Below are positions 56,838-62,603 of a DNA stretch of 64,000 bases, one piece after another. Origin of the DNA: a virus. Lineage: Duplodnaviria; Heunggongvirae; Uroviricota; Caudoviricetes. The stretch covers positions 74,988-138,987 of the IMG/VR virus record IMGVR_UViG_3300028805_000065; one strand, given 5' to 3'. Made by a program: the position numbers and the translations under genes. The notes below the pieces were generated by a model that had not been told where the DNA came from, made no database searches, and was given only the letters and a program-made list of their open reading frames with translations. Numbering within the stretch: the first letter of the stretch is position 1; the number at the start of each line of letters is the position of its first letter.

Positions 56838-57290
56838 ATGACATTTGAAGAAAGAATTTATGGCATGTTTGACAGCATTTGGGACTGTGAGATTGATCAC
56901 CCAGTGTTTCAAGACACAGTTGGTGAATTAATGGAAGCAGTTATACAGGCTTATCACACTACACAAGACCAAGGCACAGATTTAATTTGTGTGGGTGATG
57001 TGCTTGATCTGATAAATAATACACACTCTATTGGTGGGTTCAGTGATTATAGTTTTTACTCATCGTTGTTTGACAACGTTGATAGTTTACGCACAACCAC
57101 ATCAGAAATTACCCATTGTAAAGATTGTAAGCACTGTATTCGTGAAGATATAGAAGAACATACACCATATGGATACAATACTTGCTTTCATGCTTTTTGT
57201 GATAAGCATTGGGACAAGGAGCAAGGCGAATTCATAGACGTAAAACTTGATGATTATTGTAGTTTTGCGGAGAGGAGAGAGAATGGGTGA
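56838..57290 (+). CDS. mosaic-family protein with a C-terminal 'HCKDCKHC...FC...YCSFAERRE' module (150 aa)
   Basis: First member of the RCKDCK/AERRE paralog array. Confidence 0.45.
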   Translation: MTFEERIYGMFDSIWDCEIDHPVFQDTVGELMEAVIQAYHTTQDQGTDLICVGDVLDLINNTHSIGGFSDYSFYSSLFDNVDSLRTTTSEITHCKDCKHCIREDIEEHTPYGYNTCFHAFCDKHWDKEQGEFIDVKLDDYCSFAERRENG

Positions 57291-57555
57291 ATTAATAAGT
57301 AAACAGAGTGCTTCGAATGCGCTTGAAAAATGCCGTAAGCACTGTTGCAGAGAAGATGAAGTTGGTGATAGATGGATTCACTATGAAACCGCATTAAATG
57401 AAATTGAAAGTATACCGTCCGCACAACCTGAAATCATACGGTGTAAGGACTGCAAGCACTATGAATACGGGATTTGTAAGAAAGCAGGGTTGTGTGTTAA
57501 CAAATCGCCGAATGGTTTCTGCGATTGGGGAGAGAGGAGAGAGGTGACAACATGA
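57283..57555 (+). CDS. mosaic-family protein: 'ELISKQSA' N-module plus 'IPSAQPEIIRCKDCKHY...FCDWGERRE' (90 aa)
   Basis: Shares both modules with 58084-58461; start at the ATG after GGAGAGGAGAGAGA. Confidence 0.45.
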   Translation: MGELISKQSASNALEKCRKHCCREDEVGDRWIHYETALNEIESIPSAQPEIIRCKDCKHYEYGICKKAGLCVNKSPNGFCDWGERREVTT

Positions 57556-57764
57556 AAACACCAAAATACCTTTATTTCCGAGTCAAAACAGTTAATCACG
57601 GCACTGATCTTGACATTGAAGATGCAAGCGATGTTGATGTGGTGGAAGTGGTACGGTGTAAAGATTGCAAAAGTTATCAATTAAAACACCATTATTGTTT
57701 ATTTCATAGGAGTGAGTTCTGCGTTGATGATTTTTGCAGTTATGCGGAGAGGAGAGAAGATTGA
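57552..57764 (+). CDS. mosaic-family protein 'VVRCKDCKSY...FCSYAERRED' (70 aa)
   Basis: CKDCK/AERRE module only. Confidence 0.45.
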   Translation: MKTPKYLYFRVKTVNHGTDLDIEDASDVDVVEVVRCKDCKSYQLKHHYCLFHRSEFCVDDFCSYAERRED

Positions 57765-58084
57765 AACTTACCAAGAAACAGGCGTTAGAGTTGCACAGGC
57801 AGATGTGGATGGATATGATGAATGAACTCGGAGACAGTCCGCCTTTAGCAGAAAGAATCAATTTTAAAAAATGGTGGTGTAATGGACACTTTCCCGATGA
57901 GAGAATAGAATGTTTTTGTTTTCTCTGTGAATACACCAAACAATATGGCGAATACTGTTGCGATCACTGCCCCATTAAGTGGGATGACAATTACGATGAT
58001 GATAGTTGCGGCGGAATAGGTGTGAATTATGAATGTTCTCCCATATCAACAATATTGACATTACCTGAAAGAGATGGCGTGTAA
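57761..58084 (+). CDS. Cys-rich protein (about 107 aa), TTG start
   Basis: 'CFCFLCEY...CCDHCP' cluster; the only RBS-proximal start is a TTG after GGAGAGAAGA. Confidence 0.35.
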   Translation: MKLTKKQALELHRQMWMDMMNELGDSPPLAERINFKKWWCNGHFPDERIECFCFLCEYTKQYGEYCCDHCPIKWDDNYDDDSCGGIGVNYECSPISTILTLPERDGV

Positions 58085-58461
58085 TGGAAGAGTTGATAAG
58101 TAAACAACAGGCGATTGATGCAATAAACAGCCATTTCGGATTCAACATCGAGGAAGAATATGGGAGTGCAGTACAAGAAGTAATTAACGGCTTACCGTCC
58201 GCACAGCTTGGCACGGATTGCATAAGCAGACGGGTGGCGATTAATATTGTGACATTTGAGTGTGGTGAATGGACTGGTCTCGCAAAAGAAATATGTAAAC
58301 AAATAAAGCAGTTGCCGTCCGCACAGCCAGAGATTATCAGGTGCAAGGATTGTAAACAATTTCGCAGATGGATTGATACAGATATATGCTTTTGCGACAT
58401 TACAGAAGCTGAAATGTCAGATAGTGATTTTTGCAGTAAAGCAGAAAGGCGGGAAGAATGA
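58084..58461 (+). CDS. mosaic-family protein: 'EELISKQQAIDAI' plus 'LPSAQLGTDCISRR' plus 'LPSAQPEIIRCKDCKQF...FCSKAERREE' (125 aa)
   Basis: Carries the N-module, a duplicated LPSAQ junction and the CKDCK module. Confidence 0.45.
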   Translation: MEELISKQQAIDAINSHFGFNIEEEYGSAVQEVINGLPSAQLGTDCISRRVAINIVTFECGEWTGLAKEICKQIKQLPSAQPEIIRCKDCKQFRRWIDTDICFCDITEAEMSDSDFCSKAERREE

Positions 58462-58664
58462 TGTTTAATATCCAACCTGTCAAACCGATTTTTCCAAAAA
58501 ATGAAAAAGAAAAGCGAGATTTAGAGTTATGGAATGCAATTACAACAGCAATTCATTTATGCGGATTAAATGGAGAAGATGTAACAGCGATGGGTTTAGA
58601 AACGCTGAGGCAACTTGGAAGATATGATTTACTTCCGCCATGTGAGAGGAGAACCAATGAATGA
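58458..58664 (+). CDS. hypothetical protein (68 aa)
   Basis: ATGA-coupled ORF, unrelated to the modules. Confidence 0.4.
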   Translation: MMFNIQPVKPIFPKNEKEKRDLELWNAITTAIHLCGLNGEDVTAMGLETLRQLGRYDLLPPCERRTNE

Positions 58665-59084
58665 CTTAATCAGCAGACAACAGACGATAAAGGACGTAGA
58701 ATCATGGGTTGCGTTGCGGTAGATGAGCACGAAAAGCATCTGCAAAAGAATGTCGTTGAATGGCTCAAAGAGTTTCCGTCTGCCGAGCATGGCACGAACT
58801 TGGCAGAGGTTGGCACGGACTGTATAAGCAGACAGGCGGCGATAAAAGCCACATGGCAAGATACAGGTTACACAGACCCGTTTAACGTGATGACGGCTAT
58901 CAGGGACAGGATTGAGCAGTTACCGTCCGTAGAGCCTCAGATAATACGATGCAAGGATTGTAAACATCATTTGACGCACAAATGCATGGATAGTATGCCA
59001 ATTGAAAGATGTGATTTGGAACAAACATTTTATGATGCGGAAGTTGATTATTGTAGCCTTGCAGAGAGGAGAGAAGATGGATGA
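58657..59084 (+). pseudogene. mosaic-family gene split by a -1 frame change: 'MNDLISRQQTIKDVES' (to 58722) continues in the -1 frame as '...GTDCISRQAAIK...LPSVEPQIIRCKDCKHH...YCSLAERREDG'
   Basis: The N-module is in one frame (stop at 58720-58722) and the homologous remainder in the ORF 58704-59084; alignment to 58084-58461 places the junction near 58699-58703. Confidence 0.4.
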
Positions 59085-59430
59085 CTTAATTAGTAGACAG
59101 GATGCGGTAATCCAATTGTCGCACAATAAAACTGGCGATGATGACTGCGATGTAATTATCCAAAGAGATATTGAGACAATCAAACAGTTGCCGTCCGCAT
59201 TGCCTCGATGGATACCATGCAGTGAGCGATTGCCTGACAAAAAAGAAAAAACATATTGGGTTTGTCTTGAAGGTTGTGGGCAGTGCCAATGCAGATGGAC
59301 AAATGATATGTACGGTTTAGGCACTAATGAGTGGAGCAAATGGGGATGGCACATAATGGATAAACCACAGTACAGCACTATTGTTGCATGGATGCCGCTG
59401 CCTAAGTCTTATAAAGGAGAGAAAGAATGA
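59077..59430 (+). CDS. mosaic-family protein: 'DDLISRQDAVIQL' N-module plus 'LPSALPRWIPCSERLP...AWMPLPKSY' DUF551 module (117 aa)
   Basis: Hybrid of the N-module and the DUF551 module joined at the LPSA(Q/L)P junction. Confidence 0.5.
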   Translation: MDDLISRQDAVIQLSHNKTGDDDCDVIIQRDIETIKQLPSALPRWIPCSERLPDKKEKTYWVCLEGCGQCQCRWTNDMYGLGTNEWSKWGWHIMDKPQYSTIVAWMPLPKSYKGEKE

Positions 59431-61537: not shown

Positions 61538-61550
61538 AAGAGGTGAGCAA

Positions 61551-61721
61551 ATGAACAATCAATGCCTCAACTGCAAAATCCGTAAATGGTGCTACGAGTC
61601 TGAACCAGAAGAGGATTGGACTTGCGAACATTTCAAATCAGATAACGATTATGTGGACTTTCTGGACGAATGCAGACCAGAAGAGGAAAAACAACAACTG
61701 CTAGGATACAATGTCAGATAA
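61551..61721 (+). CDS. small zinc-ribbon-like protein (56 aa)
   Basis: 'CLNCKIRKWC...WTCEH'; RBS AGAGGTGAGCAA. Confidence 0.3.
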   Translation: MNNQCLNCKIRKWCYESEPEEDWTCEHFKSDNDYVDFLDECRPEEEKQQLLGYNVR

Positions 61722-61736
61722 AGCAGAGGTGACAGG

Positions 61737-61991
61737 ATGATTATACAAACCACAGGACACACGGATGATTTAAAAAGATGTCCTTTTTGCGGAGCAAATC
61801 CAAGAACTGAAGTGGCAGTAACTCAAATGGGTGGTGGAGAAGACCATATTGATTTTTCAATTCGTTGCTCAGATTGTGGAATTTCAAAAACAGTAAGATT
61901 AAAAATTCATAAATTTGTTAACTTTATAGATATTGATAAAGCAGAAGAGCAAGTTATTAATGAATGGAACAAAAGAGAGGGGGAAGAATGA
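61737..61991 (+). CDS. Lar-family restriction-alleviation-like protein (84 aa)
   Basis: N-terminal 'LKRCPFCGANP' and second 'RCSDCG' knuckle, typical of Lar/zinc-ribbon anti-restriction proteins; third copy of the AAAGCAGAGGTGACAGGATGA context. Confidence 0.45.
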   Translation: MIIQTTGHTDDLKRCPFCGANPRTEVAVTQMGGGEDHIDFSIRCSDCGISKTVRLKIHKFVNFIDIDKAEEQVINEWNKREGEE

Positions 61992-62170
61992 GTAAGAAAA
62001 AACATAAAGAGAAAGTAAGAATCTATTATAAAAAAGGTGGAAAAGAAATTATTCCTCAGAGATTTTGGGACGATTATGAATACATAGATAACAAGTTTGT
62101 GTTAAAGAAAAACGAACGATGGATTGGCATTTACAACATGGACGACATTACATGTATCGAGGTATGGTGA
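61988..62170 (+). CDS. small basic protein (60 aa)
   Basis: ATG after a GAGGGGGAAGA RBS. Confidence 0.35.
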   Translation: MSKKKHKEKVRIYYKKGGKEIIPQRFWDDYEYIDNKFVLKKNERWIGIYNMDDITCIEVW

Positions 62171-62174
62171 TCAT

Positions 62175-62603
62175 ATGAAAATAACAATCGACATTCCCAA
62201 AGAGTTTGAAGAGCATTATAAGAAAGATAGATTTAGAGACTCGCTTTTGAGATTAAAATGTGATACGCATTTGCTTGCAGGAAATTATGAACAAGAAGTT
62301 GCGGACATGTTGGTAAAGGCGTTTGAGAATACGCCTACCGCAAAAAAGATTAGAAAGGGCGGTGTTCTTTTATACTATGTCTGTAGCGAATGCGGAGACA
62401 TTGTCTTAGATGACTATATTTACTGTTCCAAATGTGGCGCTTATTTTGAAAACGAAGAGCCATCAAATCAAATAATCCATTGCAAAGACTGTGTGTATTA
62501 TTACAACACAGATCCTGAACAAATCCCTACATCAAATATTATTTGTAAACAAATGCACGAAGATGATTTCTGTAGTTACGCAAAGGAGATAGACAATGCG
62601 TAG
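62175..62603 (+). CDS. mosaic-family protein with an 'IIHCKDCVYY...FCSYAKE' module and an extra CxxC pair (142 aa)
   Basis: Distal copy of the CKDC module. Confidence 0.45.
   Translation: MKITIDIPKEFEEHYKKDRFRDSLLRLKCDTHLLAGNYEQEVADMLVKAFENTPTAKKIRKGGVLLYYVCSECGDIVLDDYIYCSKCGAYFENEEPSNQIIHCKDCVYYYNTDPEQIPTSNIICKQMHEDDFCSYAKEIDNA

Follow-up and report, generated by a model that had tools for sequence, protein, structure and literature searches.

The origin of phage mosaicism is an old question, the two candidate routes being illegitimate recombination with subsequent selection and homologous exchange at linkers that are conserved. The linker (or boundary) model is reportedly due to Susskind & Botstein and to Clark et al. 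For lambdoid phages, a boundary-sequence model of modular evolution has been described (PMC3974807). The Ea22 variants of the lambdoid exo-xis region and CPS-53 YfdS have a common N-terminal helical part and interchangeable C-terminal domains, and DUF551 has been called a portable domain in the mosaic Ea22 variants (Ea22_V2) and in YfdS, without a mechanism being given (PMC10834534; PMC4776307). For the orphan modules of CdiA-CT at the VENN motif and the orphan tips of Rhs, swapping of tips by homologous recombination at a motif has been proposed or shown (PMC7662968; PMC3967940). Here, a 64,000-nucleotide stretch of phage DNA (the window) was analysed, with emphasis on an array of small genes at 56838-62603. 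About eleven of the array genes belong to a mosaic family of exchangeable modules (A, B, C and D), strung like beads, and these modules are probably shuffled at short joints that are conserved at the nucleotide level.

Module A is a two-helix hairpin of about 40 amino acids with the motif DLISRQAAI and is often repeated; its helix 1 (ISRQAAIDAL) lies within a hairpin that AlphaFold predicts confidently. Module B is a four-Cys domain of about 40 amino acids (IIRCKDCK…FCSxAERRE) with a hypervariable middle, module C is DUF551, and module D, present in two further genes, is an N-terminal Cys-rich domain (MSxxIKGMxxPxxCxxCP). Hidden Markov models (HMMs) were built for modules A, B and C, and the module instances were aligned to them. 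An earlier sequence-only reading of the window had placed module A starts at 57283, 58084, 58657 and 59077, and open reading frames (ORFs) with the motif were found at each of these positions. Module B was recovered by its HMM everywhere that reading had seen it (56838, 57283, 57552, 58084, 58704 and, distally, 62175), the DUF551-like modules at 59077, 59427 and 59771 exceeded the gathering score of Pfam PF04448 (22 bits), and the two remote copies of module C at 49819 (+ strand) and 21447 (minus strand) matched the module-C HMM. The same reading had spoken of at least 11 consecutive genes built from three shuffled modules. About eleven genes do belong to the family, nine with A, B or C (p1, p2, p3, p5, p7, p8, p9, p10 and p20) and two with D, but they are not strictly consecutive, at least nine unrelated small genes being interspersed; A, B and C are all present, but with D the window holds at least four module types.

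A nucleotide repeat search recovered the modules as families of diverged direct repeats, with protein identities between module copies within the window of only 30-50%. The motif CCGTCCGYA occurs five times, always at junctions (0.28 expected), and the CKDCK-coding pattern six times (0.02 expected), with five of the six in the array; these excesses exclude chance.

Three types of joint connect the modules. Two are short sequences, N (ATCAGCAGACAGGCGGCGATTGAT) and J (TTGCCATCCGCACAG…), and the third, E, consists of the end of a gene together with the ribosome-binding site of the gene that follows. N stands at the start of every A unit, J between A and the next module, and E at the end of module B, where it overlaps the ribosome-binding site and start codon of the following gene. 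The LPSA(Q/L)P junction, which had been put forward as the one shared exchange point, is indeed common to A|B and A|C, in protein as well as in DNA, but it is one joint of three. All copies lie on the + strand. J (LPSAQP + EIIRCKDC; consensus TTGCCATCCGCACAGCCAGAAATCATACGGTGCAAGGATTGCAA) is found at 57412-57455, and also at 58192-58209, 58312-58355, 58920-58963 and 59188-59205. N, the start of the A unit (…LISKQQAID; consensus GATTTAATCAGCAGACAGGCGGCGATTGATGC), is found at 58087-58117, 57286-57316, 58660-58690 and 59080-59110, and the repeat search placed internal copies of it within 58201-58244 and 58803-58846. E (D(D/Y)(F/Y)CSxAERRE plus the next Shine-Dalgarno sequence) was located by the same search at 57247-57280, 57724-57757, 58421-58454, 59041-59074 and 62560-62593. 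Consensus lengths of the joints are about 25-45 nt, of which 15-24 nt form the core.

Codon use at each well-conserved residue was compared with the background of the same genes. In the J joint, LPSAQ is written TTG CCA TCC GCA CAG; its Ser codon is TCC in 90% of cases against 9% in the background (TCC being the rarest Ser codon elsewhere), and its Ala codon is GCA in 95-96% against 41%. In the N joint, ISRQAAID is written ATC AGC AGA CAG GCG GCG ATT GAT, with AGC at 85% against 23% and GCG at 94% against 35%, and in the E joint the C-terminal ERR is written GAA AGG AGA, with AGG at 81% against 25%. The invariant Cys, Lys, Asp and Phe residues of module B and the WIPCSERLP and WMPLPEPY blocks of DUF551 served as controls, and their codons were used at background frequency (Kullback-Leibler divergence <0.1 bit). 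Biased joints next to unbiased control residues indicate that silent sites are saturated generally and frozen only at the module boundaries. The N-joint bias was replicated on independent contigs, and A units in the interior of proteins carry the same N-joint codons as N-terminal units; the array itself has two internal A units, in p5 and p7b. Third positions of the junctions differed less within a locus (1.41 of 6) than between loci (1.79 of 6), with none of 500 permutations as extreme, and all five junctions of the window use the globally minor Pro codon CCG. This within-locus likeness points to duplication or conversion within genomes.

Combinatorial pairing of modules was observed on a large scale. 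Module B of the gene at 58084-58461 was found with 33 A-clusters; of its two A units, one occurred with 17 B-clusters and the other with 14. These counts refer to matches at 70% identity or more in a set chosen by similarity to the query, and hence biased. Among representatives selected by profile, there were 10 pairs with one module at least 80% alike and the other below 40%. Nucleotide matches of the window array to about 90 other phage loci covered 6.4% of it, all on joints. Of the ends of high-scoring segment pairs (HSPs) of 60-150 nt between phages, 42% fell no more than 15 nt from a joint, where a local null gave 11%; for longer HSPs the values were 20% and 6%.

A precise joint-to-joint deletion or insertion was observed in contig L117, which comes from another sample and is 96-98.5% identical to the window. 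In it, 56894-57280 is joined directly to 57724-58542, so that exactly p2 and p3 are missing, a 477-bp indel between E-joint copies 1 and 2 whose crossover point, at GCGGAGAGGAGAGA, falls within the 34 nt of the E repeat. Between the two repeat copies at these endpoints only about 15 nucleotides match exactly, and L117 carries single nucleotide polymorphisms (SNPs) of its own, with 12 mismatches on each side; it is therefore not an assembly chimera. The relative L118 retains the anchors of the array (the pre-array gene at 83% nucleotide identity, p4 at 90%, p19-p20 at 87%), and every family gene between them differs, the order being [A+other][AB] x p4 [AB][AB][C] x [D-A]; its homology with the window stops at 58127, where the N joint of p5 ends. 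In L240, a more distant relative, the anchor genes are again kept and the module genes are different (p4 [B][C]..[C][C].[A][C]). Together, the pairing, the junctions conserved at silent sites, the L117 indel and the turnover in L118 support the cassette exchange by recombination that the sequence-only reading had proposed. Two other sets of contigs gave no information of this kind: relatives found through the Band_7 gene (58-70% amino acid identity) were too diverged to be of use for synteny and had no array there, and the apparent differences in gene content between the P0068 contigs came from gene calling only, the DNA being 99.8% collinear.

The array genes, all on the + strand, combine the modules in several ways. 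Gene p1 (56838-57290) joins a unique N-terminal region to module B (HMM match, CKDCK and FCSxAERRE motifs), p2 (57283-57555), missing with p3 from L117, reads A-J-B, and p3 (57552-57764) consists of module B only, by motifs and HMM. Gene p5 (58084-58461) reads A-J-A-J-B (HMM architecture AAB). Module A does start at 58657, but this ORF (p7a, 58657-58722) stops after 21 codons, and the rest of the gene (p7b, 58704-59084) lies in the -1 frame relative to it and holds a J-like FPSAEH followed by A-J-B. The pair has the appearance of an A-J-A-J-B gene with a frameshift, which would make it a recent pseudogene or else a case of programmed frameshifting; the arrangement is identical in the near-identical contigs, and a classical slippery heptamer was not seen in the p7a/p7b region.

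Three genes carry DUF551. Gene p8 (59077-59430) is an A-J-DUF551 hybrid (PF04448 E 2.2e-7, 32.1 bits; HMM architecture AC). Gene p9 (59427-59774) has an N-terminal region of the MRLIDADTL type, a junction-like peptide QPTINPE and DUF551 (E 1.3e-8, 36.0 bits); the same type of N-terminal region is fused to module B in the database proteins P0029 and P0119, and we infer that it is equivalent to module A. Gene p10 (59771-60223) begins with a short A-like remnant ending in DALP, followed by a DUF551 with a large insertion (E 3.2e-8, 34.7 bits), and shares with p8 a 42-nt repeat (88% identical) that covers J and the start of C. The remote DUF551-like genes are a stand-alone one at 49819-50055 (+ strand) and one at 21447-21800 among minus-strand genes (…NDRLP…AWMPIPKPY). 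The PHROGs of DUF551 (15198, 924, 60 and 7704) are all of unknown function.

Module D is found in p11 (60297-60635) and p13 (60766-61080), which match each other in BLASTP at E 1e-12. Both have the form MSxxIKxMxIPxxCxxCP…CPLxE (CPLIE in p11) followed by an A-like unit, and both end right past a junction-like (A/I)PT(V/I)xKE, which is IPTIVKE in p11 and APTVIKE in p13. Gene p13 aligns through D, A and the junction with P0079, a database protein of the D-A-J-B type. The last family gene, p20 (62175-62603), joins a zinc-ribbon region to the distal module B.

The interspersed unrelated genes (p4, p6, p12 and p14-p19) lie at 57761-58084, 58458-58664 and 60632-60769, and between 61077 and 62170. 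Gene p4 (57761-58084) is a small Cys-rich gene that acts as a conserved anchor, with homologues of 91%, 83% and 56% amino acid identity in relatives. A Lar-like restriction-alleviation gene (61737-61991, + strand; PF14354 E 6.6e-10, PHROG 599) is included among the unrelated genes and is an operon neighbour outside the family. A second gene joint, GCAGAGGTGACAG(A/G)ATGA (…AEVT(E/G), stop, and the next start), was seen at 57540-57564, 61236-61260, 61398-61422 and 61717-61741, and recurs where unrelated small genes of the same operon meet.

The family is large, with 18,191 representatives (50%-identity clusters) at E<=1e-3. None of 819 word-index matches had a functional name or a Pfam domain on A or B, and few were even named 'hypothetical protein'. 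Nucleotide and protein searches of 50,697 GenBank phage records gave only marginal matches, in records of uncultured human-gut phages, and thus no cultured model phage was identified. Arrays are typical: 62 of 87 phage loci had 2-13 family genes, almost all on the strand of the matched gene. Modules A, B and C co-occur across the loci, A+C hybrids are found in at least eight other loci, and the HMM survey also returned the ORF architectures BABA, ABB and ABC. The surroundings of the arrays are small early genes; one array lies between genes for a single-stranded DNA-binding protein (SSB) and a PDDEXK protein and the terminase gene of a siphovirus-type prophage, and another, in a further large phage, has two Lar-like genes next to it.

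More than 120 IMG/VR contigs contain an exact 20-mer of the J joint, TTGCCATCCGCACAGCCAGA; at least five kinds of module come after it, namely B, DUF551, a zinc ribbon of the KKGKWI type, other domains, or another A unit. At loci L121-L199, the modules past the 20-nt joint include 'ERKKGKWI…CxxC…CPxCG' zinc ribbons and a 'PIRINLNE.IKVKLTDWGKEIYYH' domain. These further types indicate that the module pool is much larger than the four types of the window. In proteins with several A units (P0124, P0145, P0154, P0202 and others), a conserved spacer, PSAQPE(T/K)H(D/E)KRTETHACDLI(D/S)RQ, separates the units, which suggests that A units are concatenated through a longer joint in which J and N are fused.

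The observations on joints and exchange make it probable that the modules are shuffled by homologous or microhomology recombination at the nucleotide-conserved joints. Islands of near-identity of 15-45 nt would supply the homology, and modules or whole genes could be duplicated, deleted or swapped through them. Exchange within one genome would give duplication, deletion and fusion, and exchange could also take place between co-infecting phages or prophages; the outcome would be a combinatorial repertoire. Relaxed-fidelity phage annealing proteins, such as the encoded Sak, would probably be used. Short, diverged homology is a known substrate of the Rad52-like annealing proteins of phages, Red-beta, Erf and Sak among them (PMC3945230; PMC5499656). 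The Sak gene of this phage (PF06378) lies about 13 kb downstream of the last gene of the array, which is an association only. The joints may be conserved for promoting exchange or merely through homogenisation by exchange.

Several points weigh against recombination at the joints. Conservation of the E joint is at least partly explained by its Shine-Dalgarno role, and the sequences are related by phylogeny, so that raw codon counts overstate their independence, an effect mitigated by the unbiased control columns. Enrichment of HSP ends at joints is partly expected, short HSPs being anchored on conserved joints. Efficient recombination by RecA or Red usually takes more homology than the 15-24 nt of the cores, and beyond this phage a Sak gene was seen in a single relative, the flanks elsewhere being too short.

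Other explanations were considered for the same data. If the genes were ordinary diverged tandem duplicates, with motifs kept for folding or linker needs and no preferred recombination at the junctions, paralogues would be expected to be adjacent and co-directional, as they are, and the low identity of modules within the window would fit as well; constraint on the peptide is certain for helix 1 of module A, given its confident hairpin. Such duplicates would however leave unexplained why synonymous codons are fixed at N and J while those of the invariant Cys, Lys, Asp and Phe vary freely, why one B variant occurs with 33 different A clusters, why the p2+p3 indel runs exactly from joint to joint, and why one exact 20-mer precedes at least five unrelated modules. 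The junctions are shared, and duplication alone has very little probability as an account of the array. Assembly artefacts caused by short repeats, as a source of both mosaicism and indel, would be conceivable in that all data are short-read assemblies and the repeats are numerous. No two joint copies in the window have more than about 15 exact nucleotides in common, well under the assembler k-mer (k141 in the contig name); for the Logan assemblies we take the k-mer to be 31. Given also the private SNPs of L117 on both sides of its joint and the independent recovery of the window array in three samples, the chance of an artefact is close to negligible.

Silent-site conservation might instead serve the mRNA or its translation (ribosome binding, coupling, RNA structure, a small RNA site or a programmed pause), with shuffling as a by-product. 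The E joint does hold the AGGAG ribosome-binding site of the next gene, the 4-8 nt gene overlaps point to coupling, and TCC, the rarest Ser codon, is what a pause codon at a domain linker would be expected to be. Yet the internal A units, far from start codons, keep the N-joint codons, which rules out an effect of translation initiation as the cause of the N-joint bias; the folding energy of A units shows no excess (mean z -0.5) and shuffled sequences form duplexes as good as the N-J one (p=0.28), leaving RNA structure or N-J pairing unsupported; and the remaining fixed codons of J (CCA, GCA and CAG) are common, so that a rare-codon pause fails for them. A role in mRNA or translation is accordingly judged improbable as the general cause. 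A dedicated site-specific or templated diversification machine (shufflon, integron or similar to a diversity-generating retroelement, DGR) acting at the joints would account for their extreme uniformity across very different phages, and a tyrosine recombinase is encoded about 10 kb upstream, with an MrpR-like recombinase near the family array of L115. An Rci-type shufflon needs inverted sites and an adjacent recombinase, whereas all joint copies here are direct repeats on the + strand with no invertible segments, and the nearest tyrosine recombinase is the distant one just mentioned. As for a DGR, no template/variable pair of about 100 bp or more was found, the longest repeat in 56.5-63 kb being 61 nt (82%) and running across a gene boundary, and no search was aimed at reverse transcriptase. 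The crossover of L117 lies within imperfect 34-nt homology, as in homologous recombination, and the arrays of small siphovirus-type prophages have only SSB, PDDEXK and terminase genes nearby. A dedicated site-specific system is thus unlikely, and markedly so. A bolder extension of recombination at the joints would be that selection has made N, J and E the dedicated 'splice sites' of a system by which phages shuffle domains, a standardised DNA grammar that is possibly read by a specific recombination function. This is doubtful; were it true, thousands of gut and rumen phages would build new small effectors combinatorially from a common module pool, in the manner of antigenic variation or polymorphic-toxin cassettes but with whole protein domains and across a viral metacommunity.

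The identity of module B was examined in some detail. Of its four Cys residues, C1, C2 and C4 never vary and C3 hardly does (90% or more conserved), which makes zinc binding plausible from the sequence, as had been suspected. Searches of Pfam, PHROG, NCBIfam, PADLOC and the PDB gave no match for modules A and B, the profile search of PDB sequences returning nothing at E<=10, and B does not correspond to a well-known domain. Comparison with zinc-ribbon and RING families gave only sub-threshold matches (zf-RING_5 and Ribosomal_L32p), and AlphaFold modelled B with a confidence too low to assign a fold (predicted local distance difference test, pLDDT, 48-68). Identity of B with Lar (PF14354) was rejected: no B-containing protein had a Pfam match to it even at E<=1, and hhalign of a 36-sequence Lar alignment (CPFCG…C..C…AWNRR) against 155 B domains gave a probability of 3.4%, with an alignment that spans only one 14-residue Cys knuckle. 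Homology of A or B to DUF551 was likewise rejected by hhalign.

Lar-like genes (PF14354) are nevertheless common neighbours: in about 33 of some 90 phage loci (including L103, L078, L115, L047 and L025) they share the strand of family genes and lie up to about 5 kb from them. These neighbours, the hairpin repeats with a small Cys4 or DUF551 head and hypervariable core, the early accessory location and the rapid turnover lead to the tentative suggestion that the family proteins might be small adaptors or binders that target host or defence factors.

The window comes from an uncultured-phage contig of 138.9 kb, k141_3085189 (ENA ERZ27256871), near-identical pieces of which are present in two Logan runs. 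The source samples are gut or rumen, and sequences related to the array come from metagenome-assembled genomes of Clostridia/Bacillota of rumen and gut and from IMG/VR viral contigs of metagenomes; the host of the phage is a member of the Clostridia (Bacillota). Terminase and other virion genes occupy the minus strand up to about 28 kb, and all genes beyond are on the plus strand. The array, a co-directional, translationally coupled operon of small genes, sits downstream of a cluster of five tRNA genes (55432-56522), with a Band_7 gene, an RNA ligase gene and a GmrSD_N-like gene also upstream; beyond the window, a DNA methylase and the Sak single-strand annealing protein are encoded downstream. 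Translational coupling is indicated by the overlaps between neighbouring array genes. A scan for promoters and terminators found fewer promoter-like sites than in shuffled sequences and no + strand terminator-like site inside the array, a result consistent with one transcription unit, though not informative.

Some further features of the phage were noted. Within the tRNA cluster, ARAGORN reported a tRNA-like gene at 55920-55992 with a four-base anticodon (ggcg) and undetermined identity, which could be a pseudo-tRNA or a tRNA resembling a frameshift suppressor. In the tRNA region of relatives, an HNH_3 endonuclease gene is present (L118, 1771-2325; L119, 1088-1642) that the window does not have. 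The accessory genes upstream include the tyrosine recombinase (PHROG integrase) at 46252-47247, about 10 kb before the array, and, at 47691-48125, 48592-48792 and 50445-52154, a Pyr_excise (endonuclease V-like) gene, a DarA_C-domain gene and the gene for a 569-amino acid GmrSD_N-like protein. These genes are unusual cargo for a 139-kb phage and are possibly linked to defence or counter-defence. Gene orientation and GC skew both change over in a non-coding region at about 28.2-31.2 kb. It contains two tandem repeats, one of 17 bp x 5.9 at 29687-29774 (98% matching; AGTCGGGGGCTTCCGCC) and one of 15 bp x 5.9 at 30764-30863, and may be an origin or a regulatory region.

The family offers an unusually clean test case for the question of how phage mosaicism arises, with thousands of members, three short joints and natural joint-to-joint recombinants. 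Conservation of the joints at the DNA level can be separated from protein constraint, and the linker hypothesis thereby becomes directly testable. As judged from sequence, the family is also a very large unannotated group of small, probably zinc-binding proteins of phages of gut and rumen Clostridia, and the frequent Lar-like anti-restriction neighbours make its members candidates for new functions in host takeover or anti-defence. The joints could become natural standard junctions for engineered chimeric small proteins.

Ea22 and YfdS resemble the window family in being small early or accessory phage proteins of unknown function with DUF551 as a swappable C-terminal part. The N-terminal part of Ea22 is unrelated, a coiled coil with the IPR025153 signature, whereas the window family has tandem paralogues, a repeated module A, a four-Cys partner without a Pfam model and a uniform, nucleotide-conserved junction, which has not been reported for Ea22. 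The Lar-like proteins are also small, Cys-rich and probably zinc-binding phage proteins, and one is encoded in the same operon, but module B is not detectably homologous to them.

The lambdoid boundary model shares with the array short conserved DNA at module edges within dissimilar sequence and exchange points that coincide with it. In the window family, short nucleotide-conserved sequences at module edges are common to otherwise dissimilar phages, the L117 indel and the end of homology in L118 coincide with joints, and HSP ends are enriched at them. The lambdoid boundaries are intergenic and have little statistical support, whereas two of the three joints here lie inside coding sequence between domains, are common to thousands of genes and can be measured at silent sites. 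The polymorphic-toxin cassettes likewise have tandem alternative modules and a conserved peptide or DNA motif between constant and variable parts. They differ in having a toxin/immunity pair, a secretion apparatus and silent orphans, all absent from the window array, which is carried by a phage, and in which each member is a complete, translatable small gene and shuffling occurs on both sides (N, J and E). The window system thus works like the boundary-sequence and CdiA/Rhs cassette systems, and is not a member of those families.

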